Assembly: GCA_964423645.1 (NCBI GenBank)
Contig: CAYRFE010000012.1
Location: 20,085-84,084, forward strand
Length of the DNA: 64,000 nucleotides
Reading direction: 5' to 3'
DNA from: an uncultured bacterium
GTDB taxonomy: Bacteria > Macinerneyibacteriota > Macinerneyibacteria > Macinerneyibacteriales > CAYRFE01
A program made the translations under genes and the position numbers. Below, piece by piece: positions 5,209-36,131 of this stretch. Position 1 is the stretch's first letter, and each line of letters begins with the position of its first letter. The notes beneath the pieces are model-generated. The model was not told the origin of the DNA, made no database searches, and saw only the letters and a program-made list of their open reading frames with translations.

Positions 5209-5222
5209 ACATCCTCCCCGGA

Positions 5223-8329: not shown

Positions 8330-8343
8330 TCTATTCACCTCTC

Positions 8344-9396
8344 TTACAGTATGGTGTTTACTTTTTCGACAACGTCTTTGACGGTGGGAATCCATCCGCC
8401 TGCACGCCCGAGGAAATGCACATCAGCTTTTCCTGCTACACCTATTTTTACATCATCAATCATCTGACCGATATTCATTTCAACCGTAAGGAAGTGTTTT
8501 GTTTTTGAGGCTCTTTTGTTTATAATTTCATACGGATACGGCCATACGGTGATCGGACGAATCAGTCCGACCTTTTTACCCGCTTCACGTAACCGACGAA
8601 CCGCTCCGATACATGCACGCGATGACGAACCATACGCAACTAAAATAAGATCGGCATCTTCTGTCATCATTTCTTCAAAGCGAACTTCTTTTTTTTCAAT
8701 CTCTGTATACATTAATGCAAGTTCATCATTAAGCTCCATGAGGCCTGTTCCGCCAAGAATAAGCGACTTAACAATGTTACTTTTTCTTCCCTTTGCACCT
8801 GTCAACGCCCATGACTTTGACGGAAGGTCAGCAGTGGCTCTCGGTTGTTTAAATTCAACCGGTTCCATCATTTGCCCCAACATGCCATCTGCAAGCACCA
8901 TCGTCGGCATACGATATTTATCAGCTAAATAGAACGCTTCCATAACCGAATCTGCCATTTCCTGCACTGAATAAGGCGCAAAAACAATTAATCTATAATC
9001 ACCGTTTCCGCCGCCACGGGTTGATTGATAATAATCGCCTTGTGCGGGTGAAATATTACCAAGTCCCGGACCGCCGCGTTGTACATTAACGATAACCGAT
9101 GGAAGTCGCGCTCCGGCAAGGTATGAGATACCTTCCTGCTTCAAACTCACTCCCGGGGATGACGACGATGTCATGGCACGTTTCCCTGCTCCGGCAGCAC
9201 CAAACACCATATTGATTGCGGCAACTTCACTCTCGGATTGTAAAAATACGCGTTTTTCTTCCAGCATACGTTTTGACATATATGCGGTCAACTCATTCTG
9301 CGGAGTGATCGGATATCCAAAATACGCATCGCACCCTGCAATAATTGCTGCTTCACCAAGTGCTTCATTGCCCTTCATTAATACTTTTTCGCCCAT
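8344..9396 (-). CDS. korA: 2-oxoacid:ferredoxin oxidoreductase alpha subunit
   Basis: 350 aa with POR/KOR alpha-domain features (GYPITPQNE…, GGPGLG). Confidence 0.85.
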   Translation of the reverse strand: MGEKVLMKGNEALGEAAIIAGCDAYFGYPITPQNELTAYMSKRMLEEKRVFLQSESEVAAINMVFGAAGAGKRAMTSSSSPGVSLKQEGISYLAGARLPSVIVNVQRGGPGLGNISPAQGDYYQSTRGGGNGDYRLIVFAPYSVQEMADSVMEAFYLADKYRMPTMVLADGMLGQMMEPVEFKQPRATADLPSKSWALTGAKGRKSNIVKSLILGGTGLMELNDELALMYTEIEKKEVRFEEMMTEDADLILVAYGSSSRACIGAVRRLREAGKKVGLIRPITVWPYPYEIINKRASKTKHFLTVEMNIGQMIDDVKIGVAGKADVHFLGRAGGWIPTVKDVVEKVNTIL

Positions 9397-19800: not shown

Positions 19801-20316
19801 TCGTTTCAGCTGTGCGTTATCTGAAGACGACGATAACGCTTTTTGTAACATGGAGAAATATCCTTTTGGGTCACCGTTTTCACGAATAATATCAGCTAAA
19901 AGTAATACTGCGTCGGTATAGAAAAGACTATCTTTATATGAGCCTTCGATTCTACGAAGAATTGTTTCGGCATTTTTTGTAACTTTTTCCTGATAAAATG
20001 CATGAGCACTGGCATACAATACATCACCGATAAAAGTGCTGTCAGGATATCTCGTCATAAAACGTTCACTTTCAGCAATAACACGTTTATACGACTGAGT
20101 GTAATGTAAGCTTAATATATAGCGATATATAGCTTTTTCAACGCGTCTGTCATGAGGATTATCATCAATAAAACGTTTATATTCATCTAAAGACAAATCA
20201 TAATACTTATCATTAAATAACTTTTCCGCATAATCAAATCCGGAAAATGCACGTACAGTGTGACCCAATACACAAAATACCACGCAAACAATTAAGCTAG
20301 TTACTATTTTTTTCAT
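16900..20316 (-). CDS. Secreted tetratricopeptide-repeat protein (approx. 1138 aa)
   Basis: Repetitive TPR-like helical sequence throughout. Start set to the Met of MKKIVTSLIVCVVFCVLG (signal peptide), which has a GGAGG SD. The track start at 20460 adds 48 non-signal residues. Confidence 0.75.
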   Translation of the reverse strand: MKKIVTSLIVCVVFCVLGHTVRAFSGFDYAEKLFNDKYYDLSLDEYKRFIDDNPHDRRVEKAIYRYILSLHYTQSYKRVIAESERFMTRYPDSTFIGDVLYASAHAFYQEKVTKNAETILRRIEGSYKDSLFYTDAVLLLADIIRENGDPKGYFSMLQKALSSSSDNAQLKRIYKRLIYIHYDQNEFTKASFYLSRLTAEDFENGEYLWYSGDTAYNLGKNTDAQNAFDKLIARFPQSVYALKALHRKAELARSAQQLDRALQLYNQIIAINPNALEAAEAVKRKIDVLIAMKKIDDAVQQREYFFTTYAGSPYFEAVVGDALEYYKSKKNVVKVSSLYDALFEHYKKYSKTESAQSLIQEKIEYLRSEGAFKDAIETVIFYIRTYPSDLLVSYMVYTAGRIYGDDVKDYDKAVATLNEIAFDDNYGDQALYYSGLYAEKAERFTDAFRAYERVIATYEASEYADSARKRILFLQKYVVVDKKDGLDRLEKLLQEYDAESGIVNLHERMGDIYAEMKQYDKAFSYYERRGIKDEKYYRAGVFNALTVSRTAVKDFIRTHNNDETREMLSRIYRDYLVYQDVTDNSTADDYQFFIAQFPLLLDTDFVVQYIVYLSASGQEKKILDMQFPETFSDEICKGFVLGLQEYFRANYGNAEVYLEKAYNESTFIAHDLAGFYYAEALVNTGNDAAALQVLPRLKNRFTLRIKASITLAGIYNRKKNYSDSLFYASNVLKRRPDLYREYDVLLPYAESLFELGKIDVLRSELARFDSKDSEKIRTLKGLYYIRIGEFSKGEPLLQGVKNDDARKMLYDFYVERNEWNKIQSFFSDQGAYSRSRRIIALLKLQKAGEAQQLYAASGKTLDGYKAEIFYYFAQYYYLTAKDVKRARSYIDTVVKDYQQSPWHPHALFVQANILITEKKFSEAEKAFLQLLEKYPASDIRADALLSLGNVYFIQEEYEKAADVMKRGYDIKPSPEIAYSLGIVYKKAGKFTDAHTMFEIIVKNHAGHSLFYDAYLSNIYTFIDERQYNSALKLLFDISEKAPETFRLEIQYHIGDCYFGMEDYQNAIREFLKVKYIKTHNEKEYQWMITSLFQAGKAYEALGNNDKAIEIYSHVIKISGKGTVYERTAQERIKQLQTY

Positions 20317-21172
20317 CGGAAACCTCCTTCGACTTAGTCGAGAACGATATACATGAAACCGGACATGCGGGGATACAATCCAAACACCGTATGCATGCAG
20401 ATGAATCCGGTGTTTTGTACACTTCGATATCCATTGGGCATACCTTTTTACATCTATCACATGATATGCAAATAGTTTTATCTACATTCATACGAAATAA
20501 ACTGATTGTATTGAAAAGTCCCAAAACTAATCCCAATGGGCAAATATAACGACAAAATGGTCGAACAATGAAAATACTTGCTGCCAAGATAATAAGAAGG
20601 ATTGTGATTTTACTCGCGTACAACCACCCGAGTTGATAGTCATTGAAAAAAGGTAACCACAACCCGCCCTGAAACATTCCTTGAGGGCATATGTATTTGC
20701 AAAATGTGGGGTTTTTTGTTAATAACGGCAGAATAACAGTAAAAATACCAAGCAATAGCCAAGGAATATAGTAGAAAAATCGAGATGGATTGTATTTTTT
20801 TCGAATAATACGCGCTAATACGTCTTGCACAAGACCGAATGGACACATATGACCACACACCCATCGACCGGAAATACTGCCTATTACCATAAGCGTACCG
20901 GCGACAATGAGCGAGAAATTATATTTAAAATATGCAATCATATGCTGTAATGTTCCTATCGGACATGACATGACCGCACCCGGACATGAGTAACAATTCA
21001 ACACCGGCACACATATTTTTTTAAGTGTTCCTTGATAAATCGTCCCTGAATAAAATCCTTTCATATATGGATTTATGAGAATCGAAAAAAGAAATTGATG
21101 AATCATTCTTTTTTTCAAAAAGAGAAAAACGGCTCTCATGATGTCTATCCTATTCCGATACAACTGAGACAT
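20297..21172 (-). CDS. NapH/MauN-like membrane polyferredoxin (4Fe-4S binding protein)
   Basis: Membrane-embedded CxxCP motifs (CGHMCPFG, CKYICPQG, CRYICPLG) plus C-terminal 2x[4Fe-4S] ferredoxin motifs (CISCDRCKKVCP, CIRCLDCIPACP). Start uncertain. Confidence 0.7.
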   Translation of the reverse strand: MSQLYRNRIDIMRAVFLFLKKRMIHQFLFSILINPYMKGFYSGTIYQGTLKKICVPVLNCYSCPGAVMSCPIGTLQHMIAYFKYNFSLIVAGTLMVIGSISGRWVCGHMCPFGLVQDVLARIIRKKYNPSRFFYYIPWLLLGIFTVILPLLTKNPTFCKYICPQGMFQGGLWLPFFNDYQLGWLYASKITILLIILAASIFIVRPFCRYICPLGLVLGLFNTISLFRMNVDKTICISCDRCKKVCPMDIEVYKTPDSSACIRCLDCIPACPVSCISFSTKSKEVSDEKNSN

Positions 21173-21277: not shown

Positions 21278-22510
21278 TTATTCACCGCATATCCCCTTAA
21301 CAACAGCAATCGAATCACGTGCTTGCGCGATATCATGAACACGTAAAATATTTGCACCATTCATAAGTGCTATGGTATGAGCACTGACAGTAGCCGCAAG
21401 TCGATCTGAAGGATTTTTTTTATTTGTGATAAGGCCTAAAAATGATTTCCTCGAAAGCCCCATTACAAGAGGAAATCCAATTGATGAAAATTCTCGGAGC
21501 CGACGGATTATTGTCGTATTATCGATAAGTCTTTTCCCAAAACCTATGCCGGGATCAAGCGCAATCGAGGCATGAATGATTCCTTCTTGTAACGCATAAC
21601 TCGTTCGGTCTAAAAAATAAGAAAATATTTCCTGGATCACATCATCGTAATATGGATCTTTCTGCATTTCTTGTGGTGTCCCTTTACTGTGCATGAGTAC
21701 AATTCCTGCTTGATGGCGCGCTATAACTGCTCCCATTGCCGCATCAAAGCGCAATCCCGAAATATCATTGATACAGTCGGCTCCTTCTTTGAGCATGGTA
21801 TCGGCAATTCTACTTTTATACGTATCAATTGAAACCGGTATCGCGGGGGCTATCTTTTTTACACACGAAAAAGCGGGAAGAATTCGTTTAAGTTCTTCAG
21901 CTTCACCAACCGGATCACTACCGGGACGCGTAGATTCCGCACCTATGTCAATTATATCTACGCCTTCTTCAATCATATCGGTTACACGTTTTTCGATAGT
22001 TGACACATTCGTATACGCCCCGCCGTCATAAAATGAATCAGGGGTAACATTTAATATGCCCATAATTTTCGGCACGGTCAGATCAATATATTTAGTACCG
22101 CATTGCCATAAATGAGGACGAGAAAGCACGTCTTTAATATCACTACACAATGTTTTGAGGGAAAACGGTTGATGTTGTAAACGTGATGATAATTTTTCAA
22201 TGTGTCGTTTTGTGATCAGTAAAATAACATCAGTTCTATCAGGTTTTCCGCTTATCGCACTGCGTGGAACAACGGCATCGGCACCGATCGATAGTAATTC
22301 TTGCTTCAAAATATTGGCGGCTTCGATCCTAATATCACTGAGCTTCACGCAGAGAATATCTTTCTTGTTCATAAAAACTTTTTCCGCATAAGGATCGATC
22401 CCAATTTTATGAATTTCATTACACCAATCGGATTGATTGGGATATAGTAATCGAATTTTCGAATGAATAGTCATTATCCTTTTAATTCCTTTTGACGCAT
22501 ACGATACCAT
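21278..22510 (-). CDS. folP: Dihydropteroate synthase (FolP) with an approx. 130-aa N-terminal extension
   Basis: Pterin-binding domain (GILNVTPDSFYDGG…, DIGAESTRPG, ALDPGIGFGK) in the C-terminal 270 aa. N-terminal extension has no recognisable motif. Alternative start at 22474 (MTIHSK…) would abut the upstream gene exactly. Confidence 0.8.
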   Translation of the reverse strand: MVSYASKGIKRIMTIHSKIRLLYPNQSDWCNEIHKIGIDPYAEKVFMNKKDILCVKLSDIRIEAANILKQELLSIGADAVVPRSAISGKPDRTDVILLITKRHIEKLSSRLQHQPFSLKTLCSDIKDVLSRPHLWQCGTKYIDLTVPKIMGILNVTPDSFYDGGAYTNVSTIEKRVTDMIEEGVDIIDIGAESTRPGSDPVGEAEELKRILPAFSCVKKIAPAIPVSIDTYKSRIADTMLKEGADCINDISGLRFDAAMGAVIARHQAGIVLMHSKGTPQEMQKDPYYDDVIQEIFSYFLDRTSYALQEGIIHASIALDPGIGFGKRLIDNTTIIRRLREFSSIGFPLVMGLSRKSFLGLITNKKNPSDRLAATVSAHTIALMNGANILRVHDIAQARDSIAVVKGICGE

Positions 22511-22800
22511 TCCAGCCTTTTTTTCAATTTTCCATAGACGATTGTTCGTTCATTATCCGGTAAATGCCTGTATTTCTCCTCACATCTGTTATATCTCATT
22601 TCAAGCTTTGCTATTATTTCGGACAATTCTTGCTCGTTGTATACCCCTTCATCAACGACAAAGTTTTTTTTCCGTATGCGAGGGAAATTGCGTTGAGCAT
22701 ATTTCTTTCGCGTGAGTAAAATCCACGCAAGAGTCATTACAAATAATAACATCGGCACTATAAGCGCTGCCGCACGTTCCCATGTTGCTATGTTCTTCAT
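22474..22800 (-). CDS. Small single-pass membrane protein, hypothetical
   Basis: 108 aa. One TM (LIVPMLLFVMTLAWILL), basic and coiled C-terminus. Confidence 0.45.
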   Translation of the reverse strand: MKNIATWERAAALIVPMLLFVMTLAWILLTRKKYAQRNFPRIRKKNFVVDEGVYNEQELSEIIAKLEMRYNRCEEKYRHLPDNERTIVYGKLKKRLEWYRMRQKELKG

Positions 22801-22945: not shown

Positions 22946-24742
22946 TCATTCCATGCATACATACACCTTTTCTTTCCCAAAAACAGGCACAACTGTTGAT
23001 AAAAACAGATGTGTCACAGTATCGCGAAATTCCGAAGAATATCGATACATACCCTCATGAAAATGTAAATTTGCAGTGATTACCGCTTTCTGAGGATCGC
23101 GTGAAATAGCACGATAAGTATCACGATTCATCCGTAAAAATCCAAGAGAAATATACAAAACACGCGAGGAATCAATTTCACGAACAATCCGCTCAAAAAG
23201 GTTCGTATAATCATCAACGCACCCTTCGTAAAAAATAACCGGATCAACATGCACGGACACTTGATAACCCCATTGCACAACATCTTTAATCGCATAAAAA
23301 CGCATATCAAGCGTTGCGGTCCCCTTTTCATGAAGCGATATAACATGTTGCGGAGACAACGTCCATGCAGGCACTACCGTATGATGATTGTTAATTGTTC
23401 GCAGGTGCAAATAATTTTGTGACTTTGTGCGAAACTCACATCGAATTCGGGGGTATTGAATTAAATGCTCTGATACGAACTCACTCATTTTGGTGATTGT
23501 ATCAAATGTAAGTGCATCACAAAAATCTCCGAAATAGATAATAATAGGTTGCGAATGCAAGGATGTATAAAGGGTAATTATTTGTGAGACAATCGCCTCT
23601 TTGTTTTCGAACAATACAATATCATCACTTCTGAAAAAACCTTGTAAATAACAATACGAACAATCAAACATACAATTGTATGCATTTACCGCAGAATAAT
23701 GATGAATTGATTTTGCCCCGTACCCTTCAGGTTTTTTTTTCACACAGAGCCCTTTTTTTTGAGCGATAAAGATATTTCGAATTCCGTATTGTGTCTTATT
23801 CATAAAATAATGCAAATAATTTGTAATTGAAACAGGTTTTAAAAAAGAGAATCGTTCGTGGTACTGCGAGACGGAGAAATCTTCTTCAACCAACAGATAC
23901 CCGTTATTTTTTTGTGATGAAGTTCTCAGTGAAATTTTCTGATTATTCTCGAATGAAAACAAATTTTGTCGTATCTGGGAATATATTTTTTGTCGACTTG
24001 AAAATGAAGAATGATGATGTACAAAATATTGAGACAACTGCAAGACAATATCATTCGCTTCAAAATCAAATTCAAGGGCCATGTATATTTCAAGCGACCA
24101 TGGTACGGTAAATATTTTTTCCCATTCTTCACGATGTTCAAGAAAATACTCGGCGAATCCTTTTGTGATGCGAGTGTCAATGCTTGCACGAACATTTTCA
24201 TTATAATCACTCACTTGTTTGATTAAAAGCACAGGAACAGAATTACGGTCGCCCCATTGACAGATAAAATACCCCTCCATGTCGATCAAAGTACCAAAAT
24301 ATTTCCATGCATCACAATTTCCTTCTGTAACGACCGGAACCGTGATAAGCGGTTGTGAATTCTTCATCTTTAGTCTGCACTGCTTTGGTGCTTGAAACGT
24401 TCGATTTGTATGCAAGTCATGATAAATGACCGATGAGACCGGGAAAATATTCCCAACCGAAAGCGAAACATCAAGTGATCCGGCGATACCCATATTAACA
24501 ATCGCAATAAATTCATACGTCGCCTGTAATGTATACAACGAATGAAGAAGCGCAAAAAAACCATCACCATTATTTGAATAAATATACCAGTCGCATAAAT
24601 CTGACGAATACTTCCAAAGACGTTTCGATTTTATGATTTGAAACGGCAGCTCAAGAAAATATTTCATTTCAAATGCATGCTCAAAGACCAACAATACTTT
24701 TGGAGTCTGTAAAATAGCAACGTCTTTCGTAGTGTGTGACAT
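22946..24742 (-). CDS. Fusion protein: N-terminal PNP/MTAN-superfamily nucleosidase-like domain + C-terminal SPL-type radical SAM domain
   Basis: N-term: GIAGS and LIDMEGYF (the EMEG-type motif of MTA/SAH nucleosidase / futalosine hydrolase). C-term: CMFDCSYCYLQ = CxxxCxxC with the CxYCY signature of the spore-photoproduct-lyase-like radical SAM family. 598 aa. 1-nt overlap with the upstream Wzy-like gene. Confidence 0.65.
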   Translation of the reverse strand: MSHTTKDVAILQTPKVLLVFEHAFEMKYFLELPFQIIKSKRLWKYSSDLCDWYIYSNNGDGFFALLHSLYTLQATYEFIAIVNMGIAGSLDVSLSVGNIFPVSSVIYHDLHTNRTFQAPKQCRLKMKNSQPLITVPVVTEGNCDAWKYFGTLIDMEGYFICQWGDRNSVPVLLIKQVSDYNENVRASIDTRITKGFAEYFLEHREEWEKIFTVPWSLEIYMALEFDFEANDIVLQLSQYFVHHHSSFSSRQKIYSQIRQNLFSFENNQKISLRTSSQKNNGYLLVEEDFSVSQYHERFSFLKPVSITNYLHYFMNKTQYGIRNIFIAQKKGLCVKKKPEGYGAKSIHHYSAVNAYNCMFDCSYCYLQGFFRSDDIVLFENKEAIVSQIITLYTSLHSQPIIIYFGDFCDALTFDTITKMSEFVSEHLIQYPRIRCEFRTKSQNYLHLRTINNHHTVVPAWTLSPQHVISLHEKGTATLDMRFYAIKDVVQWGYQVSVHVDPVIFYEGCVDDYTNLFERIVREIDSSRVLYISLGFLRMNRDTYRAISRDPQKAVITANLHFHEGMYRYSSEFRDTVTHLFLSTVVPVFGKEKVYVCME

Positions 24743-26553
24743 TATTCAACAGCAATAATAAAACGTTCGTATGCACTAACCGTTTTTTCTTTTGAATATC
24801 TGCTTATTTCACGCATTCTTTGAGCGTGTGTTAATTTTTCTTCTTTATCGGTTGAGTGAGTCTCGATAAATGCGTGCACACGATAAAATTCCGGTTCAAT
24901 GAGTAATATTTCTTGTGCTTTTTTCATCGCAGCGGGAATATTACCTTCGCTTTCAAGAACGTTCATCATAAAGTAATGATAGCGCACATTGAAAGGCCAG
25001 TCTTTCAGTATGGTTTCAAGTTCAACATGTAAACGCATACGTATCTCAGGTTCCATAAGCTGTATCTCTTTTGCTTTGGTATTTTTTAAACGTGTTAAAA
25101 AATCAAAATAATGGAGAGATAATCGAAAACGAACATCACTGTCCATCGGCATTAATTTCTTATGCTTCGCATAATAGCGCTCAATCGCTGCGTAACGACC
25201 GTTCTGAGGAAAAGGCAATGTTGTTTGTGTTAAAAAATTCGTATATTGCTCAACATAAAAGGGATCATACGGTGTCAGCCGATGAGCATAGCGTAACAAT
25301 TGATACACTTTCATTTGATCTTTTTCCTTCGTCGATCGCAGGTATAACGAATACGACAATATATGCAACGTACATACGTATGTTATAATAAAAAATATGA
25401 TATTGGTATAGTATGGTTTAAAACGATAGTACCATGCATGATCATGTGTTCCAAAACTAATCAACACTGCAAAAAGCAATACAATCGAAAAACTTTTTTC
25501 GATATTATTGAATAATCCGGCGATCATAAAAAACGCGATAGGCAATCCATACATTCGTTTCTTGAGTGAGAAAAATAATCCGCTGAATAATAAAAAAGAT
25601 CCTATAATACCCATTACCAGCAATCCTTCAAGATATGTGCTATGGGACATTCGAGGTGTTTTCGCAAATCGTGAATATTCGGTTTGTTCACCTTCAAAAT
25701 ATTTTTGTAATGTGACTTCTACTGTGCCGGGGCCAAATCCGATAAACGGATGTACCGTAAACATTCTGTATGCTGCATTATAAATTGAAACACGGGAGTA
25801 TGCGAAAGGATCTTTTTTATCCTTTGTATACCGTTGGTATATTAATCCCGACAAAAGCAATACGGCTGACACTGCAGCAAGAATAAAATAACGTCGATCT
25901 ATTAATTTCTTTTTATATATTAAATATGCCAAAAAAAATATGAGTATAACAATAGTCGTTCGAGAAAGAGTAAAATACAACCCGCTCACAACAAGAATTG
26001 TTGCACTTAAAAATATGATACTGTTTTTTTGAAAAATATTCTTTTCAAATACAAGAAAATAAAATGCCACAAGAAGCCACAATGCCACCCAATTGGGATT
26101 CACAAATGTCGATGCAGGACGCGGTATACGATATGCCATAAATTGAATTATAATAATAATACAGTGCACAATTGAAAACAGCAACAATATACTTATAAAA
26201 TATTTTTGGTTAAATGTTATGTTTTTTATAATTATCATTGATACTATAGTGAATGCGAACATGATGACGTGGCTATTAATCGCATTATTATGATATGCGA
26301 CAACAATTACACTTAAAACCGCCGCACATATCAGTAAATCAGATATCTGTAAGGTGATTCGCTTACGAAGAATAACATATAATGCCGATAAAATCGGAAT
26401 AATGGAAATAACATACTCATTTTCGCCGCCTTGGAAAAATGTCGATAACATGACAATAATTACAAATACATACTCTGCGATTCTATATACCGGAAGTGAT
26501 TTGATATATCTGATAGCACTATTTATCATTATATCTGTATTCCTCAAGTTCAA
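24742..26553 (-). CDS. O-antigen ligase (Wzy_C)-like polytopic membrane protein with C-terminal soluble helical (TPR-like) domain
   Basis: At least 10 TM segments. Wzy_C-type periplasmic loop (YSRVSIYNAAYRMFTVHPFIGFGPGT). Approx. 200-aa hydrophilic helical C-terminal domain. 603 aa. Confidence 0.7.
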   Translation of the reverse strand: MNLRNTDIMINSAIRYIKSLPVYRIAEYVFVIIVMLSTFFQGGENEYVISIIPILSALYVILRKRITLQISDLLICAAVLSVIVVAYHNNAINSHVIMFAFTIVSMIIIKNITFNQKYFISILLLFSIVHCIIIIIQFMAYRIPRPASTFVNPNWVALWLLVAFYFLVFEKNIFQKNSIIFLSATILVVSGLYFTLSRTTIVILIFFLAYLIYKKKLIDRRYFILAAVSAVLLLSGLIYQRYTKDKKDPFAYSRVSIYNAAYRMFTVHPFIGFGPGTVEVTLQKYFEGEQTEYSRFAKTPRMSHSTYLEGLLVMGIIGSFLLFSGLFFSLKKRMYGLPIAFFMIAGLFNNIEKSFSIVLLFAVLISFGTHDHAWYYRFKPYYTNIIFFIITYVCTLHILSYSLYLRSTKEKDQMKVYQLLRYAHRLTPYDPFYVEQYTNFLTQTTLPFPQNGRYAAIERYYAKHKKLMPMDSDVRFRLSLHYFDFLTRLKNTKAKEIQLMEPEIRMRLHVELETILKDWPFNVRYHYFMMNVLESEGNIPAAMKKAQEILLIEPEFYRVHAFIETHSTDKEEKLTHAQRMREISRYSKEKTVSAYERFIIAVE

Positions 26554-27847
26554 TGGTTTTTAACCAAGCGGAATAATACAATCCTTTGTCATGCAATTCT
26601 TTTCGTTCATCTGCAAGCATTCTCAAATATCTTTTCGGCGGTATTTTTATAAAGAGTATTGCTACAGAAACATACAATAGGATTGCTACCCATGCAAACG
26701 TTCTTCTTCCATAGGTTATTTGCTCATCCGGCTCATTGATTGCATATAAAAGCCAAAACAATCCGCCTATTGAAGGGAAATAATAGACAATATCGATCAT
26801 AAAATAACAACTCAGAACAACAAACATTGGAAAAAGAGGGGAAGCCCGTATTCTGTATAATGCAATCCCAAAAAACACAACCATGATAATACCGACTACC
26901 CCATGATCAGCCATACTTTGTAATGCAAAACTATGAGCATTATGAATAACATTCGCATCCTGTTGCTGATAACGAGGATAATGAAGATCAAAATTATTTT
27001 CACCTACACCGATAAGGGAATTATCGCTGTACATTTGAATTGCTGAACTATAATTTTGATACCGTTCTTGGAGTGACTTTTCCACCGAAGAAAATTCTCG
27101 TACAGAAAAAAACATTATTCCTGCAATAAGAACCAATAGCGAGCCTATTATCAGTTGCTTATATCTTTTTTTTGTAATAAGAATAATAACCGTGTACAAA
27201 ACCATCAATCCAAAAGCAATAAATGTTTTTGTGAGTAACATCATCCCAAGATTACATAATGCAATAATGAAATAATAGAACTTATGTTCCTTTTTATAAA
27301 GGTACAATGCGATAAAAAATGCCGTTATACAAAAAGCTGCATAGGCATTTGGCAATTGGAATGTCGCAAATTGACGTCCGGATCCAAGAAGTGCTTTTAC
27401 CGCACTGTCAGCATGTGTGTGCAAAATCATCGGAAATGCATAAATATTTTGATACAACACATAAAGCATAAGTACAAGGGAATAGACTACCAGTGTTTTA
27501 TAGAAAAGAATCGGAAACGAATAATGCCTGAATATAACATATAAAAACAGATAAAACATATAATACAGATACATTTCATTCGATAAAAACAAATCTTTAG
27601 CATACATAATGGAGGTAAGCGGTAATATAAAGAACCAAAATAAACTACGAGTGCATGCGATTTTTTTAAATGAAAATATTACAAATATCCCGCTGAGCAT
27701 AAGAATGTTTATAAAAAGCGAATCATTAATACCTGCTGCGTTGGTGCTAAAATCAAACCCGAAAAATAACATTATCGGAAAACCGACGAGTAGGGGTATA
27801 AATATAAGATATAAATATTTCATACCATATGATAAGCCTTTTTTCAT
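26519..27847 (-). CDS. O-antigen ligase (Wzy_C)-like polytopic membrane protein
   Basis: Polytopic. Wzy_C loop HNAHSFALQSMADHGVVG. 442 aa. Immediately downstream of pilQ (53-nt gap). Confidence 0.7.
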   Translation of the reverse strand: MKKGLSYGMKYLYLIFIPLLVGFPIMLFFGFDFSTNAAGINDSLFINILMLSGIFVIFSFKKIACTRSLFWFFILPLTSIMYAKDLFLSNEMYLYYMFYLFLYVIFRHYSFPILFYKTLVVYSLVLMLYVLYQNIYAFPMILHTHADSAVKALLGSGRQFATFQLPNAYAAFCITAFFIALYLYKKEHKFYYFIIALCNLGMMLLTKTFIAFGLMVLYTVIILITKKRYKQLIIGSLLVLIAGIMFFSVREFSSVEKSLQERYQNYSSAIQMYSDNSLIGVGENNFDLHYPRYQQQDANVIHNAHSFALQSMADHGVVGIIMVVFFGIALYRIRASPLFPMFVVLSCYFMIDIVYYFPSIGGLFWLLYAINEPDEQITYGRRTFAWVAILLYVSVAILFIKIPPKRYLRMLADERKELHDKGLYYSAWLKTIELEEYRYNDK

Positions 27848-27900: not shown

Positions 27901-30138
27901 TTAATTTGCCGCCGGCATGATAATATGTGGCGTTACAAAAATAATTATTTCTTCTGCCTCACGTTTGGTTTGTCTGTTTTTGAATAATAGTCCTAAGATC
28001 GGGATGTCTTTTAAAATCGGTACACCTGAAGACGAACTGGATTTATCCAAGCGAACAAGGCCTGCGATAACTGCTGTTTTCCCATCTTTTACTAACAGAG
28101 TTGTAGTTGCCGTATTTTTCGCAATAATCAAATTCACTCCCGAACCTGATGCATCACTGACCTCAGGTTTAATCTCCAGTATTACCTCATTACTTGCATT
28201 CACGGTAGCCTTCACATCAAGTTTTATACCCACATCGGTAAGTGTGGTCACGGTATTCCCTGCTTGATCAAGCTGAGTAATCGGCACAGACTTTCCGTTT
28301 TGGAGAGATGCGGTTAATCCGCTCATAGTCGTAACCGACGGATTGGCCATAACTTCGGCTTTACTTTCTTCAGCGAGCAAGGTGAGTTTCATATTGATGT
28401 CATACGTGTCCAATAACGTTGTTACGACATCAGTAGAAATACCTGTAGTTCCATATTGAATATTGGTTCCGTAATTCGGAGCACCGGTGGTAATAAAAGC
28501 TTGGTTGTTGGTTGCCTGCCAGCGAATACCCAGCGTCGTTGCTGCAGAGGTCGCAACACGAACAAATTTAGCCTCTATCATAACTTGCGGTATCGGTTTG
28601 TCAAGATACCTGATCATGTTGAGAGCTTCATTCAAACGCTCAGGACTGCCTGTGAGAATCAACGAATTGGTTCGCTTGTCAACGATTGGTTTCATAGACA
28701 TCGTTTGTTCCAACAGTTTAGAAATATCATCTGCCGTTGAATAGGAAATTGGTATGATCCGTGTTTCTACAGGTCCTAAATCAACCATTTCTTTCTGCTT
28801 TTTAACCGCATCGACTTCTCTTTTAAATTCATCAACGGTTGCAACACGAATAATATTATCTCTAATCTCATATGCAAACCCGTTGGTTCTGAGAATAATA
28901 TCTAATGCCGTTTCCCATGTAACATTAGAAAGTTCAAGCGTCACTAAACCTTTTACACTTTGAGACATAATAATATTATACCCGCTTTGTTTTGCGAGCC
29001 CCGTTAAAAGGACAGAAATATCTTGTTTCTGTACAGAAATATATTTAATGATATCTGAACGTTTTTCACGCATACTGGTATCGGAAGTTTGATTACCAAG
29101 CATATCAATATCCATAACAATGTCTTTGTCATCGCGATAAATCTTATATGAGATATTATTGTTTAAACGTATGTCAGAAATAACGTTATTCCCGCTTCTG
29201 CTGTTTGTTACTTCAACAACAGCCGCTTTACGTACAGGTATCGTAAGTAGTTTATCGCTGATTGCGGCATTGGTAAACGTAAGCTGGATTTTTTCTTCTT
29301 TGGGAAGTTGCTTTTCATCAAATCGAACCCATCCGTTTGTTTTAAAACGTAATGTTACACGATTATCCGTTTGTTCGCTGGTAACTTCCGTAATTTCAAC
29401 GCGTTGCGCTTCAACTTCTTTATCAAGCGTGATAACCAAGCTGTTCTGGCCCTTTTCAATGTTTGCAGGAAATTCATTCATCAGATTGATAACAAGATTG
29501 ATATCCTTTTCACCGATAGGCACAAGATTAATATTTTCAACGACATCTCCATCGCCGACAAACTGCTCTTTCCCTGTGATATTTTTGGCATTATATAACT
29601 CAACGGTCATCTTTTTCTTTTCTTCCTTCACCGTATAATTGAATGCTTCTTCAAATTCGATGAATACTTTCACCTTATTCGTACCATCCTTAACAATATC
29701 CACCATCTTTAACTGGGATGGTTTGCTAAGCGTCTCTGTAGATGCTGTCACGCTCGTCGGTGTCACATCGCTCAAACTGAAATGAATAACCAATGAGTTG
29801 GCTTTTTTGTCAACAAAATATTGATACCATTTATCCATCTGTACGACGACTCGTGAAATGTTTTTTTGAAACTGCGCAACTCGGATCTCTTGAATTCCGC
29901 CGATATTAACCTTCGTTGATTCATTTTTTTTATCAGTTGTGGTTGACTGAAAATCGATTATGAGACGTGCAGGGCCATCCATCTTTGTGATTGCATACTT
30001 CAACTGCCCCTCAACGGTAATCTCAACATCCAATCCGCCGGTAACCGGTGTATGGGTCACATTCTTCAAGACTGCCGCAGAAAGAGTCGTTACCGCACAT
30101 GCGATACAAAGGACAGCACATGCTAAAAATTGTTTCAT
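27901..30138 (-). CDS. pilQ: Type IV pilus secretin PilQ
   Basis: Signal peptide. N-terminal AMIN-like repeats. C-terminal secretin domain (…GVPILKDIPILGLLFKNRQTKREAEEIIIFVTPHII). Confidence 0.9.
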   Translation of the reverse strand: MKQFLACAVLCIACAVTTLSAAVLKNVTHTPVTGGLDVEITVEGQLKYAITKMDGPARLIIDFQSTTTDKKNESTKVNIGGIQEIRVAQFQKNISRVVVQMDKWYQYFVDKKANSLVIHFSLSDVTPTSVTASTETLSKPSQLKMVDIVKDGTNKVKVFIEFEEAFNYTVKEEKKKMTVELYNAKNITGKEQFVGDGDVVENINLVPIGEKDINLVINLMNEFPANIEKGQNSLVITLDKEVEAQRVEITEVTSEQTDNRVTLRFKTNGWVRFDEKQLPKEEKIQLTFTNAAISDKLLTIPVRKAAVVEVTNSRSGNNVISDIRLNNNISYKIYRDDKDIVMDIDMLGNQTSDTSMREKRSDIIKYISVQKQDISVLLTGLAKQSGYNIIMSQSVKGLVTLELSNVTWETALDIILRTNGFAYEIRDNIIRVATVDEFKREVDAVKKQKEMVDLGPVETRIIPISYSTADDISKLLEQTMSMKPIVDKRTNSLILTGSPERLNEALNMIRYLDKPIPQVMIEAKFVRVATSAATTLGIRWQATNNQAFITTGAPNYGTNIQYGTTGISTDVVTTLLDTYDINMKLTLLAEESKAEVMANPSVTTMSGLTASLQNGKSVPITQLDQAGNTVTTLTDVGIKLDVKATVNASNEVILEIKPEVSDASGSGVNLIIAKNTATTTLLVKDGKTAVIAGLVRLDKSSSSSGVPILKDIPILGLLFKNRQTKREAEEIIIFVTPHIIMPAAN

Positions 30139-30148
30139 CTTATCCTCC

Positions 30149-31039
30149 TTATTCAGTAACTTTATGTAAAATAATATCGCGCGGTTGCCCTTCGGTTTTG
30201 ATCACAAAACGTCGCAGTACAACCATCTCACGGGTTATAGACTCAACCTTTGCACCACCGATAACGCTCCCTATCTTCAATACGATTCCACGGCCGGAAT
30301 CATCTTCCAGCATCGCAACAACTTCGTTCCCGTAATGAATGATTCCCCTGTAATTTAATTTTGAGAAATCGACATCTTCCGCATCAACAACACTTTGTTG
30401 GGTAGTGCTTCCGTCTTTTTCTTCGGGAGTAGCATACGGATTAATGAAAGGATCCCGTTTGTTATGGCTTTTATACTGATAGGTCTCTTTTTCCTTGACC
30501 ACATCTTCAACATTACGTTCTTTCGGATCCTTCGCCGCATCTTTGGATACTACGGTTTTTTTCGTATCAATCTTTTTTTCCGTGACCGGGCTGTCTTGAG
30601 GTTTCTTCGTGGTTGTAACATTTTGGGTAGTAGTCACCGTTTTACCGGTGTCAGGTGTGGTTTTACCTGTCGTTTCGTTCTTCACGGTATCAGTTTTTTT
30701 AGAAGACTCTGGCTTCTCCGCCGGTTTTTTAACATCCGTTTTCGAAGTATCTTTTTTTGTAATATCAGTCTTCGTTGCATCTGTTGGTGTTTTACTCGAC
30801 TGAGTGGTATCCGTCTTCGACGTAGTTGATTTTATCGGCTGTTCAATGGTCTGCTTTTGTGCATCCGTTGTCTTTTTCCCGTCAAGTGCCGGAGGTTGAC
30901 TCTTTTTATATACTTGCTCTATCTTATCTTCAGCATCTTTCAAATCTTTGTCAGTAGGCTTTGACGATCCGCAGGAACTCAATACTACCATCACCGACAT
31001 ACAACACAATAAAAAAATACACCAACGTGTTCGGCGCAT
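30149..31039 (-). CDS. pilP: Pilus assembly lipoprotein PilP with long T/K-rich disordered linker
   Basis: Lipobox LSSC. Approx. 150-aa low-complexity KTD/TTK linker. C-terminal PilP beta-domain (…YRGIIHYGNEVVAMLEDDSGRGIVLKIGSVIGG…). Confidence 0.75.
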   Translation of the reverse strand: MRRTRWCIFLLCCMSVMVVLSSCGSSKPTDKDLKDAEDKIEQVYKKSQPPALDGKKTTDAQKQTIEQPIKSTTSKTDTTQSSKTPTDATKTDITKKDTSKTDVKKPAEKPESSKKTDTVKNETTGKTTPDTGKTVTTTQNVTTTKKPQDSPVTEKKIDTKKTVVSKDAAKDPKERNVEDVVKEKETYQYKSHNKRDPFINPYATPEEKDGSTTQQSVVDAEDVDFSKLNYRGIIHYGNEVVAMLEDDSGRGIVLKIGSVIGGAKVESITREMVVLRRFVIKTEGQPRDIILHKVTE

Positions 31040-31048
31040 AATCCTCTC

Positions 31049-31624
31049 CTATTTCTTCTCGTTATAGATGTATGCCACCAAATTGAGCGAAGAGCTGATC
31101 GTATGTGTCTTTTTCGACGTCGTCGCAGATTGCACGCCCGAAATAGAAATATCCCCAACATTGATAATACGGGGCAATAAACTAAGATTTGATAAAAAAT
31201 ATCCCAGAGAATGAAAATTTCCTTTAAGGGATAAATCAATACGAAACTCCAGATAATCACCCTTCGGTTCAAGCTTTCCGGGTTTAAACGATTCTAAGGA
31301 CAGATCCGCACTTTGCGACGCATACGTTACCTCGCGCAATAATTTGGGAATTTCCTGTTGAGTAGGTAAGAGTTTTTTGGCGATCTCTATGCGAGCGTTG
31401 TTATTTTCTATCTCTGCCTTGAGTTCCGCAACTTTTTTCTCTAACGCGACCAAACGCGAATATTCGGTTTTCTTTTGCGTCACCTCTGTTTCTAAACCCG
31501 CGATAACCGCGCCCTGTGGTTTGAGAAGCATATAGTAAAAAACAGCGATCAATCCTATAGCGAGAAAAACGGCGATTACAATCTTTTTATTCTTGGGATC
31601 GTTAATATCAAACTTTCCAGCCAT
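31049..31624 (-). CDS. pilO: Type IV pilus assembly protein PilO
   Basis: Single N-terminal TM, coiled coil, then periplasmic domain. Position between pilN and pilP. Confidence 0.8.
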   Translation of the reverse strand: MAGKFDINDPKNKKIVIAVFLAIGLIAVFYYMLLKPQGAVIAGLETEVTQKKTEYSRLVALEKKVAELKAEIENNNARIEIAKKLLPTQQEIPKLLREVTYASQSADLSLESFKPGKLEPKGDYLEFRIDLSLKGNFHSLGYFLSNLSLLPRIINVGDISISGVQSATTSKKTHTISSSLNLVAYIYNEKK

Positions 31625-31633
31625 TTCATCCCC

Positions 31634-32212
31634 CTATTTTTTTGTTTCCCTAAACGCAGGATTTATCAAGCATGTGATAGAAAACGAGGAAAAAGTCTTT
31701 TCATCCTTACCGCTTGAGATTTTTGCCTCGGTCACGCCCTCGATAGTCGCCTTATCAATAAAACCGGGAACTTCAAGGCTTTCCGCAAAATCAGAAATGA
31801 TAAAATTATTTTTGCTTTTACCGCTAAGACTAAGGGTATTCCCTCTCAAACTCATTGATTCAAGCCACATATCTTCAGGAATTTTAAGCAGAAGCGTTTC
31901 CAACAATTGAGGCGTGAAGGTACGTCCCTTCTGCAAGCGATCAAGCACGGCAACCTTATTCTTAATATCTTTTAACTGTGCTTCAAGTGTCTTCGCTGTC
32001 GCATCGAGAGTTTTAAACTCCGGTTTATTTATCTTTTGCTCAAGATCATCTTTCTCTTTTGTAAGACTAGATATTTTTTGAAGATTTGCAAGATACATCA
32101 TTCCAAGAAAAATCGCAAGACCGACGAATGCCAGTATCATTACGGTGCCAAGTATAGGCACCCTCGCCCGCTCCTTACGTTCTTCCTTCGGGAGCAGATT
32201 GATCTCTATCAT
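31634..32212 (-). CDS. pilN: Type IV pilus assembly protein PilN
   Basis: Hallmark N-terminus MIEINLLPKEERKE followed by one TM. Confidence 0.85.
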   Translation of the reverse strand: MIEINLLPKEERKERARVPILGTVMILAFVGLAIFLGMMYLANLQKISSLTKEKDDLEQKINKPEFKTLDATAKTLEAQLKDIKNKVAVLDRLQKGRTFTPQLLETLLLKIPEDMWLESMSLRGNTLSLSGKSKNNFIISDFAESLEVPGFIDKATIEGVTEAKISSGKDEKTFSSFSITCLINPAFRETKK

Positions 32213-32213
32213 A

Positions 32214-33221
32214 TTACTTCACCTTCCTCATCGCAAGGCCGACAACAACCGTCAGCGCCGGACCTAATTGTTCCAAATCGCTCATTAATGCGGGAGGTGC
32301 CTTCATATACTTTACCGGATTGAACAATTCAATTTCAACACCCAGTAATGATGAAAGAGAATTTGACAGTCCCAGCGTTAACGCGCCGCCACCCGTTATG
32401 ACGACACGATTAATAACAACCTGCGTGTTCATTTTCACATAATCTATCGAGCGCATTATTTCATTACCGATATTGGTGTTCACTTCATCTACAAAGGGAC
32501 GAATATCGACATTCGCCGTTTCTTTGCCTAACTTCACTCTATCAGCCGTATCAAAATTCATGCCGAGTCCCTTTGCAATGGCATCGGTGTAATGACGACC
32601 GCCATAATTGATTTCACGAATAAACTTCGGAATACCATCCACCGTGATATTCAAGCTGGTTTTCTCAGAGCCTATATCGGCAAAAAGAACCGTCCCGCTC
32701 GTCGGAGCAACTAATGTTTCATATACGTTTTGAATAGCAAGGGCTGATGTATCGACAACCATCGGGCTCAAACCGAGACTTTTTAATAAATTAACGCGCG
32801 CATTAACAATCTCTCGCTTCGCCGCTACGATCAAAACATCTGTTTTGCCGGCGCTTTCTCCTAATATTGCATAATCAGAATAGATATCCGACGGTTCAAA
32901 AGGTATATAATTCGGAAGTTCCCACCCTAACGAGGCAACGACCTTATCTCTGCCGGTTGCATCTATCTGCACTGTTTTATTGATTAAATGACGACCTGAT
33001 ATAGGGATCGAAACATTTTTATTCTTTATTTTCCTATTTGCAAAAATACTGCTGATGGTCGACTCGATCAGATTGGCATCAATAATCTCACCCTCAACGA
33101 TGCTTTCTCGAGAAAGCAGTCCGTAACCGAAATTTATAACTTCAACTCCTTTGGATGTAAGGCGAAGTTCCATGGCCTTGATGCTGTTCGCACCAATATC
33201 CAAGCCAACGAGCTGCTTCAT
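32214..33221 (-). CDS. pilM: Type IV pilus assembly ATPase-fold protein PilM
   Basis: Actin/FtsA-like fold signatures (GLDIGANSIKA…, ITGGGA). First gene of pilMNOPQ. GGAGG SD. Confidence 0.85.
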   Translation of the reverse strand: MKQLVGLDIGANSIKAMELRLTSKGVEVINFGYGLLSRESIVEGEIIDANLIESTISSIFANRKIKNKNVSIPISGRHLINKTVQIDATGRDKVVASLGWELPNYIPFEPSDIYSDYAILGESAGKTDVLIVAAKREIVNARVNLLKSLGLSPMVVDTSALAIQNVYETLVAPTSGTVLFADIGSEKTSLNITVDGIPKFIREINYGGRHYTDAIAKGLGMNFDTADRVKLGKETANVDIRPFVDEVNTNIGNEIMRSIDYVKMNTQVVINRVVITGGGALTLGLSNSLSSLLGVEIELFNPVKYMKAPPALMSDLEQLGPALTVVVGLAMRKVK

Positions 33222-34558: not shown

Positions 34559-36131
34559 GACGTATAAACCTCATCGATAGTGTAGTAAATCTCCCCTTCT
34601 CTGTAATCAATTCCATTGTAGCACCACCCATAGCCAAGAGCAAGCGAATGATATACATCCCGATTCCGGTCCCTTGTTCTTTCGTAGTATATCCGAGTTG
34701 AATAAGACGAATAAGCTGATCAGCATCAAATCCGTTCCCATTATCCGTAATATCCAGATAAACATGCTCATCACTCTGACGCAAAATAACCGTAAGCGTC
34801 AGAGAATCACGCCGTTCTTCAAGTGCGTTTTTTATAATATTATCACAGATGATCTTCAACTTCATCCGATCAAAATAAATAAGCGGAGAAATCGTCGCCT
34901 CAATCGAAAACCGCACATTGCTATCATTAAAAACTGTTTCCCAGTGCATCAGTAAATTTGTGGTAAACTGTGCTAATTCTATCGGTTCAGGCGTATACTC
35001 GATCAATAAACCCATATGTGACGCAACTGAATTGATGAATTGTAATTGATTGTCGATATCATCCCATTTCTTCTCTTCGGGGTACTTCTTTTCAAGCGTT
35101 TTTACGATCATAGCGATAACATTTAAAGGATTTTTAATCTCATGCGCAATGACAGAAGAAAGCGTTTTTAATGCAGTCTCATTGACCGCACACGCAGATT
35201 GCAATTCGTCCGCACGCTTCTGAATGATCAGAATACGATCATACCCGTTTTCGGTTTTCATCCCCACCAATACGAAATCTGCAAATACCGGCGTTCCGTC
35301 CATCGCGGAAAATGTTTGCGTAAAAAACAATCCGTTATTAAATTTCTCATCGTCAAGCATAGTATGCAGAAAGGGGAATATTTCATGTGCATGAAGTCCT
35401 TGAATAGTACCTCCGTAAAGAGATTCAAGTTTTTTATTGGAATGGCGTACAACACCATCTCCTTGGAGTACGGCAAACCCGACACCAAGATTATCGATCA
35501 CATAATTTAAAACTTGCATGGTATTTTTCACGGTTGAAGACATATCATTGAAGTGATTAGCGAGCGTACGAATCTCAGCTATACCGTCTTCGGTGACATG
35601 CACATCATAATTCCCTTGTGTTATGAGCTTTGTTGAACGCGTAATAGCGGTGACGGGACGAATAAAGAATACATACGAAACGTAATACATACATCCGGTT
35701 ATCGCGATAATTAATATATAAAAAGGAATTAAAAAACGCAAATACATCCCTGCGCGCAGATAGTCACTAAATGAGTATATAAACACGTAGCGACTTGCAT
35801 TATCGGATCGTAAAAATAGCGTACGGTTGAATCGCAGAGGAGTACCCGATTTTAACCGGTCACGGATCGCAAACAAATCATAATAGGGAACTCCGATAAA
35901 TCGTTCATTCGACTCATCATATACCGCACTTAAAAAATGCAATGCTACTAATTTTTTTAAAACAATTTCTTGTTTGTCACTGTCTTCTGTTGCAATAAAA
36001 TCCGTGTAACGGATCAAGGAGTCCTCCATTTCATTATAGTACAATGAAAATAATAAATGATATGCAAGAAAACCGCTTATAATCGCTGAAGATAACAATA
36101 ACGACGCCGCGATAAGAACAGTTTTTTTCAT
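34539..36131 (-). CDS. Sensor histidine kinase (PilS-like by position)
   Basis: N-terminal TM/HAMP. HisKA H-box HEIKNPLNVI. HATPase_c (G-boxes DNGNGF, GTGIGMYI). Start set to MKKTVLIAASLLL at 36131, forming an ATGA overlap with the upstream gene's stop. Confidence 0.8.
   Translation of the reverse strand: MKKTVLIAASLLLSSAIISGFLAYHLLFSLYYNEMEDSLIRYTDFIATEDSDKQEIVLKKLVALHFLSAVYDESNERFIGVPYYDLFAIRDRLKSGTPLRFNRTLFLRSDNASRYVFIYSFSDYLRAGMYLRFLIPFYILIIAITGCMYYVSYVFFIRPVTAITRSTKLITQGNYDVHVTEDGIAEIRTLANHFNDMSSTVKNTMQVLNYVIDNLGVGFAVLQGDGVVRHSNKKLESLYGGTIQGLHAHEIFPFLHTMLDDEKFNNGLFFTQTFSAMDGTPVFADFVLVGMKTENGYDRILIIQKRADELQSACAVNETALKTLSSVIAHEIKNPLNVIAMIVKTLEKKYPEEKKWDDIDNQLQFINSVASHMGLLIEYTPEPIELAQFTTNLLMHWETVFNDSNVRFSIEATISPLIYFDRMKLKIICDNIIKNALEERRDSLTLTVILRQSDEHVYLDITDNGNGFDADQLIRLIQLGYTTKEQGTGIGMYIIRLLLAMGGATMELITEKGRFTTLSMRFIRHENTSG

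Follow-up and report, generated by a model that had tools for sequence, protein, structure and literature searches.

In this analysis, we examine one gene in a 64,000-nucleotide stretch of contig CAYRFE010000012.1 from an uncultured bacterium (the window, meaning that whole stretch), which encodes a 598-residue protein joining a nucleosidase of the MTAN (methylthioadenosine/S-adenosylhomocysteine nucleosidase) type, a helical linker and a radical S-adenosylmethionine (SAM) domain of the spore photoproduct lyase (SPL) family. Judged from sequence comparison and structure prediction, the gene is best explained as encoding a bifunctional enzyme, the fused form of a conserved module of nucleosidase and SPL-family radical SAM enzyme. 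Both domains are present with their catalytic residues intact, the pairing is kept in fused and in split form, and a reductase recurs nearby. What appears to be new is the module itself, an MTAN-type nucleosidase, a helical domain and an SPL-family radical SAM enzyme, usually accompanied by a carbonyl reductase. By sequence, the parts can be assigned to known superfamilies, with scores below the equivalog cut-offs of bona fide SPL, MTAN, MqnB and HpnG. A literature search of open-access text found no paper describing an MTAN-SPL fusion or pair. An earlier note on this DNA, which did not recognise the architecture as a described family, is supported in this respect; the architecture is not unique, however, as it recurs in at least 19 fused clusters and hundreds of split loci.

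The open reading frame (ORF) begins with ATG and contains no internal stops (Table 1). The two-domain fusion proposed in the earlier note is borne out by both Pfam domains scoring above threshold, by a profile match to MTANs and by superposition of a predicted model, and each motif that it cited is found in the protein (GIAGS, residues 85-89; LIDMEGYF, 152-159; CMFDCSYCYLQ, 357-367). The domains stand, and their limits shift slightly, from about 60-230 and 330-598 to about 15-190 and 263-598, with the linker (~190-262) between them; the SPL-like domain takes in the alpha/beta sub-domain that precedes the cluster at the N-terminal end of SPL. The Pfam SPL model (PF20903) scores 58.5 bits against a gathering cut-off of 27 over residues 344-533, and PNP_UDP_1 (PF01048) scores 28.1 bits against 25.1 over a short stretch. 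The latter call is marginal and is secured independently by the profile match of the N-terminal domains to MTANs and by the model superposition. NCBIfam yields sub-threshold matches only (spore photoproduct lyase, PRK05634 'nucleosidase', MTAN, futalosine hydrolase and HpnG). The AlphaFold (AF2) model has a mean pLDDT of 84.9 and a pTM of 0.73, and Foldseek superposes it on CT263 and MTAN structures with TM scores of about 0.8 (0.82 for CT263; rmsd 2.6-2.9 A) and on the whole chain of the SPL structure 4FHC with a TM score of 0.72 over about 350 columns.

A profile built from 14 N-terminal domains matches solved MTANs in the PDB end to end (E = 3e-15). The best structural match, CT263 (PDB 4QAQ), we take to be a chlamydial futalosine-pathway nucleosidase. 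For E. coli MTAN, we assume a catalytic set of Glu12, Glu174, Asp197 and Arg193, in which Glu12 is the water-activating base and Asp197 protonates adenine N7, with E172/M173/E174 ('EME') as the ribose-binding motif. The position of Glu12 is occupied by E25, invariant in 14/14 N-terminal domains and 45/45 split-form proteins, and that of the EME motif by D154-M155-E156, whose two acidic residues are invariant in 18/18 fusions and 45/45 split forms. Furthermore, S178 and D179 (MTAN S196/D197) are invariant, and K175, a Lys in place of Arg193, is at least 90% conserved across fused and split forms. This invariance in both forms argues for an active enzyme, and the nucleosidase half, with the intact catalytic motif that the earlier note had pointed out, looks like an adenine-type N-ribosyl hydrolase.

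Its exact class is another matter, since the domain falls below every equivalog cut-off. Futalosine hydrolase is the most consistent NCBIfam match (12/14 N-terminal domains, best E = 7e-14, below equivalog cut-offs), and the HpnG model matches 4/14, weakly. For the fusion protein, the MTA/SAH nucleosidase models (NF004079, TIGR01704) give 25.9 bits against a cut-off of 169 (29.9 for the N-terminal domain alone), the futalosine hydrolase MqnB model (TIGR03664) 19-24 against 124.7 and the HpnG model (TIGR03468) 11.7 against 187.1. In the alignment, the domain differs from MtnN/Pfs and the short CT263 by loss of a segment of about 24 residues (in MTAN presumably carrying Phe151) and of S76, as well as by the extra helical domain and the joined radical SAM enzyme. 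Moreover, Met9 and Ile50, which we take to line the hydrophobic 5'-alkylthio pocket of MTAN, align with H22 and D60; the first is a conserved His, found in 43/45 split forms, and the second is acidic, being Glu in 45/45 split forms. As aligned, a polar H22 and D/E60 are unlike what the 5'-methyl of 5'-deoxyadenosine would need.

The linker has no Pfam or PDB match. It is confidently modelled, and F247, R250 and Y254 within it are invariant in the eight closest fusions. In the split family, the corresponding region belongs to the nucleosidase gene, and a helical domain of about 70-130 residues always accompanies the nucleosidase, whether fused or split.

The C-terminal domain matches SPL (SplB; 4FHC) by profile over SPL residues 79-332 (E = 1e-30), and PF20903 is found in all homologs, with Pfam Radical_SAM matching several family members. 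The resemblance covers the whole-chain fold, the CxxxCxYCY(L/F) cluster motif, an 'E..T.....R' motif and a 'DP' strand. No fusion and none of the 72 split forms departs from the cluster cysteines or Y363; Tyr98 of SPL corresponds to Y365 (Tyr or Phe across the family), the SAM contacts K174 and S195 to K440 and T461, and R273 to the invariant R537. In SPL, Cys140 is the hydrogen-atom donor with Tyr96/Tyr98 as a relay, a long beta-hairpin flips the lesion with Arg304/Tyr305 at its tip, Lys309 serves lesion flipping and phosphate binding, and Arg273 contacts the lesion phosphate (PMC3467042). These features are kept unevenly. The window protein retains a Cys at the Cys140 position (C408), as do only its subclade and the fusion P0012; the residue is Ser or Phe in other fusions and Ser in 66/72 split forms, and the adjoining D409 is invariant. 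In the profile alignment, the hairpin is about eight residues shorter than in SPL and lacks R304, Y305 and two further tip residues, and K309 is replaced by Met565, the position being Lys in 62/72 split forms. With the hairpin tip absent and the Cys140 equivalent not conserved, the SPL reaction itself is unlikely. Identity to SPL is 18-19%, the spore photoproduct lyase model TIGR04070 scores 60.8 bits against an equivalog cut-off of 400 and its sister TIGR03886 50 bits against 437.55, and the net charge and isoelectric point (pI 5.7-9.6) of the C-terminal domains carry no consistent nucleic-acid-binding signal. Unlike SPL, moreover, the module's enzyme is fused to or paired with a nucleosidase, and its known hosts are not spore-forming Bacillus or Clostridium. 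By these comparisons, the protein is a radical SAM superfamily member and an SPL-family enzyme rather than a spore photoproduct lyase.

The module is widespread. An exhaustive profile search of 1.84 billion representatives returned 3,869 family hits; among 157 proteins, comprising the best 150 of these hits and earlier matches, both domains occur together in at least 19 clusters at 50% identity, reaching down to 20% identity. The fusion recurs with 100% identity on an independent contig in ENA and at 29-54% identity in seven other full-length homologs. Fusion hosts include Ca. Mcinerneyibacteriota, the candidate divisions TA06 and WOR-3, and the cultured Desulfurella acetivorans A63, which has a complete genome (the D. 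acetivorans protein is AHF97020.1). Members are labelled 'hypothetical', 'SPL family radical SAM protein' or 'DNA repair photolyase' in databases, and the nucleosidase half goes unmentioned. Loci were found with an alignment of eight sequences, one of 18 being too diverse, and the gene neighbourhoods described here come from a sample of about 100 among thousands of loci.

The closest stand-alone SPL-like family proves to be a split form of the same module, found at no fewer than 501 metagenomic loci and common in marine and freshwater (presumably oxic) metagenomes, with one named member, from a Leptospiraceae metagenome-assembled genome (MAG). Where enough upstream sequence was available, 49 of 53 split loci carry a gene of about 335 codons for nucleosidase plus linker directly upstream on the same strand, which overlaps the SPL-like gene or ends no more than 7 nt from it. 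The two activities are thus kept together, fused or translationally coupled, over very deep divergence. With at least 19 fused clusters, several phyla and 49/53 paired split loci, the pairing is evidently under strong selection. One stand-alone SPL-like protein, P0010, was considered as a split half and rejected, since the 299-aa gene coupled upstream of it is not a nucleosidase and it belongs to a different sub-family; it was the only sequence returned by a word-indexed homolog search with the C-terminal half alone. In the MAG SRR22302353_concoct_17, the fusion is broken across contigs, with the N-terminal half at the end of L013 (2309-2956) and the C-terminal half at the start of L012 (42-932).

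Gene contexts differ between clades. Fusions in Mcinerneyibacteria neighbour ispE-spoVG-glmU-rplY-pth, those in TA06/WOR-3 amidohydrolase-PolX-DUF3783, and those in Desulfurella and one relative carB-greA-pyrK-pyrD. Across clades, the one recurring partner is an NAD(P)H-dependent carbonyl reductase, either a short-chain dehydrogenase/reductase (SDR) or a non-homologous aldo-keto reductase (AKR). In TA06/WOR-3, the gene directly upstream encodes a short SDR whose Ser-Tyr-Lys triad is intact; in Mcinerneyibacteria and at locus L018, this SDR is directly downstream instead, and the 3' end of the fusion P0059 (21% identity) is overlapped by a more distant SDR. Among split loci, the short SDR lies directly downstream at L096, L099 and L100, and 38 loci have an AKR (196 bits) divergently upstream; a small 2-oxoglutarate (2OG)-Fe(II) oxygenase is found downstream at 38. 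Additionally, a family 2 glycosyltransferase (GT2) is linked in 25 split-family loci in two arrangements; at L096 and L100, the order on one strand is GT2-nucleosidase-SPL-like-SDR. Hidden Markov model (HMM) searches of all fused-type loci for the AKR, GT2 and 2OG oxygenase partners of the split family were negative.

Several further neighbours were noted in passing. At TA06/WOR-3-type loci (L004:5058-5291, L009, L010, L011 and L013; 5/5), PolX and the SDR flank a gene for a 77-aa DUF3783 protein, which shares an overlapping operon with the fusion. A cN-II-type 5'-nucleotidase (495 bits) occurs a few kb from the split pair at 12 loci (e.g. L044:277-1647, L089:7733-9676 and related loci) and a transketolase-like protein at nine; these could reflect a link to nucleoside or deoxy-sugar salvage, or merely inherited synteny. 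The GT2 at L096:940-1812 has a weak, sub-threshold match to a TET-associated glycosyltransferase (PF20691, 22.2 against 27.5 bits), which, with the 2OG-Fe(II) oxygenase, gives a faint hint of base-modification chemistry that is probably due to chance. Downstream of the Desulfurella acetivorans fusion, at a distance of 3 kb, there is a VitK2_biosynth (MqnA/MqnD-family) gene (L016:14772-15596). The intervening genes use both strands, two being on the opposite one, and since other loci do not conserve the VitK2_biosynth gene, its proximity is probably coincidental.

How these activities might work together is suggested by known radical SAM systems. The common denominator of the module's activities would be a 5'-deoxyadenosyl-bearing molecule, either the by-product 5'-deoxyadenosine or a C-adenosylated substrate, which the radical SAM half makes, the nucleosidase frees of adenine and the reductase then reduces at the ribose aldehyde. 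To our knowledge, only two biological C-adenosylation reactions are known, those of MqnE and HpnH, each followed by a PNP-family nucleosidase. In the former, the product adenosylated by MqnE loses its purine to a coupled PNP_UDP_1-family nucleosidase (MqnB/MTAN); MqnE lies outside the SPL family, and no mqn genes are conserved beside the module, many host lineages of which are presumably fermentative candidate phyla. In the hopanoid side chain, HpnH adenosylates, HpnG removes the base, the ribosyl product becomes a polyol and the GT2 enzyme HpnI glycosylates it (PMC13459092). This logic parallels the GT2-nucleosidase-SPL-SDR operons and the AKR and GT2 neighbours of the split family; HpnH, too, is not an SPL-family enzyme, and the window has no reductase or GT2 near the fusion gene. 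The C-adenosylation pathways are marked by genetically coupled radical SAM and PNP_UDP_1-family nucleosidase functions, and such coupling is found here in at least 19 fused clusters and 49/53 split loci. Membership of the module in the futalosine or hopanoid pathway itself was considered and rejected, as pathway genes were not found: there are no mqn genes among window ORFs of at least 200 aa, and no hopanoid genes, including squalene-hopene cyclase, in the window or the related loci inspected.

We favour, tentatively, a mechanism of three steps: adenosylation of a substrate by the radical SAM half, loss of adenine through the nucleosidase and reduction of the freed ribose by the reductase. 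The radical SAM half would cleave SAM, and the 5'-deoxyadenosyl radical would add to an unsaturated carbon of the substrate; the fused nucleosidase would then hydrolyse adenine off the adenosylated product, in the manner of MqnB/MTAN and HpnG, and the partner SDR or AKR would convert the ribose aldehyde to a C5 polyol chain. The polyol might be further elaborated by GT2 or perhaps, in the window's clade, by Wzy_C proteins. The order of steps, adenosylation instead of hydrogen abstraction, and the nature of the substrate are what we infer here. Adenosylation is favoured because the known pairings of radical SAM and PNP-family enzymes, MqnE/MqnB and HpnH/HpnG, are of exactly this type, because the N-terminal domains most closely resemble futalosine-pathway nucleosidases, because the 5'-pocket positions are polar and conserved, because the helical domain always accompanies the nucleosidase, and because reductase and GT2 parallel the route from ribosylhopane to bacteriohopanetetrol and HpnI. 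Reduction of the ribose aldehyde is, moreover, the chemically natural step after base removal.

Several points weigh against this mechanism. We know of no SPL-family enzyme that adenosylates, SPL itself abstracting a hydrogen atom, and we can name no candidate olefinic substrate or pathway. The pocket argument depends on an alignment, and the gene contexts are otherwise heterogeneous and housekeeping-like (pth/rplY, pyrD/pyrK, PolX). The GT2 linkage could be inherited synteny, and the SDR at L019 is a distant one, with 24% identity to the short SDR family. HMM searches found neither reductase nor GT2 near the window gene and its close relatives, nor at Desulfurella-type loci, so that for the window gene, whose own clade has no local reductase or GT2, the pathway model is carried over from homologs.

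The chief rival is the earlier note's proposal of a self-detoxifying radical SAM enzyme, which stays live, if somewhat unlikely in our estimation: hydrogen abstraction would release 5'-deoxyadenosine, the fused nucleosidase would hydrolyse it and, as extended here, the reductase would dispose of the 5-deoxyribose. The reading is parsimonious, given that canonical radical SAM turnover can release 5'-deoxyadenosine and that MTAN-type enzymes cleave it; in 2005, Choi-Rhee and Cronan reportedly found that MTAN relieves radical SAM inhibition. It also agrees with the intact catalytic residues of the nucleosidase, with SPL homology, Y363/Y365 and the clade's Cys140 equivalent, all of which fit hydrogen abstraction, and with the cN-II 5'-nucleotidase and transketolase-like genes near some split loci. 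One report treats 5-deoxyribose as a recognised by-product that needs disposal (PMC6079011). What the proposal did not predict, and leaves unexplained, is a polar His and acid at the hydrophobic 5'-pocket positions of MTAN, a constant helical domain, and a recurring reductase and GT2; nor does it explain why one family alone of the superfamily should keep a private nucleosidase across phyla, and the five observations that favour adenosylation are left unaccounted for. We also know of no precedent for the reductive disposal of 5-deoxyribose.

Homology would by default suggest an SPL-type DNA or RNA lesion lyase, in which the C-terminal half repairs a pyrimidine photoproduct or related lesion and the nucleosidase is an accessory for by-product removal or ligand binding. 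SPL is the only solved relative, R273 is invariant as R537, K309 is retained as Lys in most split forms, SplB-like radical SAM genes are known in repair operons (PMC3765255), and in TA06/WOR-3 the fusion gene lies in an overlapping operon with the DNA polymerase PolX (510 bits against a cut-off of 426). We nevertheless hold this distinctly unlikely, given equivalog scores far below cut-off, the short hairpin without R304/Y305, Met at the K309 position in the window protein, a Cys140 equivalent not conserved family-wide and C-terminal domains that are not consistently basic; the PolX linkage is confined to one clade, and the reductase and GT2 get no role. Still less probable is a reversed order for anaerobic salvage, with the N-terminal domain cleaving a 5'-substituted adenosine (MTA, SAH, 5'-deoxyadenosine or another), the radical SAM half rearranging the ribosyl product and the reductase finishing. 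The futalosine pathway offers a precedent in the nucleosidase MqnB, which is followed by the radical SAM enzyme MqnC, and the housekeeping-like contexts, hosts that are mostly anaerobes with small genomes, and the N-terminal position of the nucleosidase all agree with this reading. SPL-family enzymes are unrelated to MqnC, however, no salvage gene, be it for a kinase, an isomerase or another enzyme, is conserved in the vicinity, and the split family occurs in presumably oxic metagenomes and adjoins a 2OG-Fe(II) oxygenase. Finally, two genes joined by a frameshift or a chimeric contig, an outcome of the kind that the earlier note had named among its refutations, can hardly be the explanation. 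The two halves do occur as separate genes in the related split family, and some database entries are half-length (P0013, P0016). Yet the same continuous fusion is found in independent ENA, Logan, JGI and NCBI assemblies, including the complete Desulfurella acetivorans A63 genome, the linker is conserved and confidently modelled, and the half-length entries are explained by fusion genes broken at contig ends (P0013, cut by its contig end, and L012/L013, one broken gene), P0016 itself having no record.

Taking the tentatively favoured adenosylation mechanism further, it is possible, if more speculative still, that the module is a third, independent radical SAM C-adenosylation system and the first on the SPL fold. 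The SPL-like enzyme would attach the 5'-deoxyadenosyl group to an unsaturated carbon of its substrate, which might be a lipid, a precursor of glycans or perhaps even a pyrimidine base; once the nucleosidase had stripped the adenine, an SDR or AKR would reduce the ribose to a C5 polyol, to be decorated by GT2- or Wzy-type enzymes.

Table 1. Features of the fusion gene and its immediate neighbours (positions in the window)
Feature	Position	Strand	Basis or remark
Whole gene: nucleosidase/linker/SPL-family radical SAM fusion, 598 aa	22946..24742	-	Intact ORF, both Pfam domains, AF2 model
MTAN/futalosine-hydrolase-type nucleosidase domain, residues ~15-189	24176..24700	-	Profile to PDB MTANs, Foldseek, NCBIfam
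Glu25, equivalent of E. coli MTAN Glu12	24668..24670	-	Aligns with third Glu of MTAN 'AMEEE'
Asp154-Met155-Glu156, equivalent of MTAN 'EME' (E172/M173/E174)	24275..24283	-	Aligns with MTAN 'vEMEa'
Lys175...Ser178-Asp179, equivalents of MTAN Arg193...Ser196-Asp197	24206..24220	-	Aligns with MTAN 'vvRavSD'
Helical linker domain, residues ~190-262, SF(S/T)xRQxxY motif	23957..24175	-	Four helices in model
SPL-family radical SAM domain, residues ~263-598 and stop codon	22946..23956	-	Pfam SPL, profile to 4FHC, Foldseek
CxxxCxxC [4Fe-4S] motif, C357-M-F-D-C361-S-Y363-C364	23651..23674	-	Aligns with SPL C90/C94/Y96/C97
Cys408-Asp409; Cys408 aligns with SPL Cys140	23516..23521	-	Alignment
Upstream Wzy_C (O-antigen-ligase-like) membrane protein	24742..26553	-	Pfam Wzy_C 58.1 bits
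Second Wzy_C protein, directly after pilQ	26519..27847	-	Pfam Wzy_C 54.3 bits; clade-specific synteny
Downstream predicted membrane ORF, 108 aa, no family match	22474..22800	-	Conserved only in L003 and L005

In the window, pilMNOPQ, two Wzy_C genes and the fusion gene follow one another on one strand, the order given in the earlier note, and the start of the fusion overlaps the stop of the adjoining Wzy_C gene (TAATG), an arrangement of translational coupling. This adjacency is conserved only in L001, L003 and L005, close relatives with 46-54% identity. As a definer of function, the pilQ/Wzy context was rejected, because the context changes completely between clades; the hint of a surface structure drawn from it in the earlier note is accordingly weak, and the recurring GT2 of the split family offers a modest, independent hint of a glycoconjugate link. 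HMM searches of the whole window for the short SDR, AKR, GT2 and 2OG oxygenase were negative. The 108-aa downstream ORF, which matches no Pfam or NCBIfam family and runs 37 nt into the start of folP, combines a single predicted membrane helix with a charged tail; its membership in the module is doubtful.

Other features of the window were recorded alongside. The adjacent Wzy_C protein (603 aa) carries a soluble C-terminal extension of about 280 residues, and since the tandem Wzy_C genes (24742-27847) stand beside a type IV pilus operon, they could encode pilin O-oligosaccharyltransferases rather than O-antigen ligases. The type IV pilus genes form two blocks about 20 kb apart, pilB/pilT-like ATPase/pilC (2834-6965, minus strand) and pilMNOPQ (27901-33221, minus strand). 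The product of folP (21278-22510, minus strand; TIGR01496, 307 bits) has an N-terminal extension of about 147 residues without a family match, its dihydropteroate synthase match starting at residue 148, and L003 and L005 share this extended form. They also keep, two genes downstream of the fusion, a Fer4_5/NapH-like membrane polyferredoxin (20297-21172, minus strand), which might supply electrons to the radical SAM cluster; the polyferredoxin ORF overlaps the annotated GTG start of a 1186-aa TPR protein by 164 nt, that start probably being placed too far upstream. A 2-oxoacid:ferredoxin oxidoreductase (7586-9396) points to an anaerobe. An 871-aa protein (36128-38743, minus strand) carries a C-terminal sorting domain for type IX secretion (Por_Secre_tail, 30.5 bits) and is flanked by two pairs of histidine kinase and sigma-54 response regulator; taken with the taxonomy of the relatives, it suggests an origin in the FCB group or an allied candidate phylum. 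Of the 37 window ORFs that reach 200 aa, 35 lie on the minus strand, and no 2-kb bin departs from a negative GC skew, so that the whole window forms a single long block of co-directional genes, probably within one replichore.

The combination of nucleosidase, SPL-family radical SAM enzyme and carbonyl reductase may point to a third C-adenosylation pathway. If so, an unrecognised ribitol-extended envelope molecule or hypermodified base would exist in widespread marine and freshwater bacteria and in several candidate phyla; if the enzyme instead cleans up after itself, it would be the first of the radical SAM enzymes to carry its own means of by-product removal. The question is experimentally reachable, with the fused form in the cultured Desulfurella acetivorans A63 and the split form in Leptospiraceae. 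Either outcome would caution against transferring the SPL annotation by homology, and would give a function to a large set of genes mis-annotated as 'spore photoproduct lyase' or 'DNA repair photolyase' in bacteria that have no spore formers among their known relatives.

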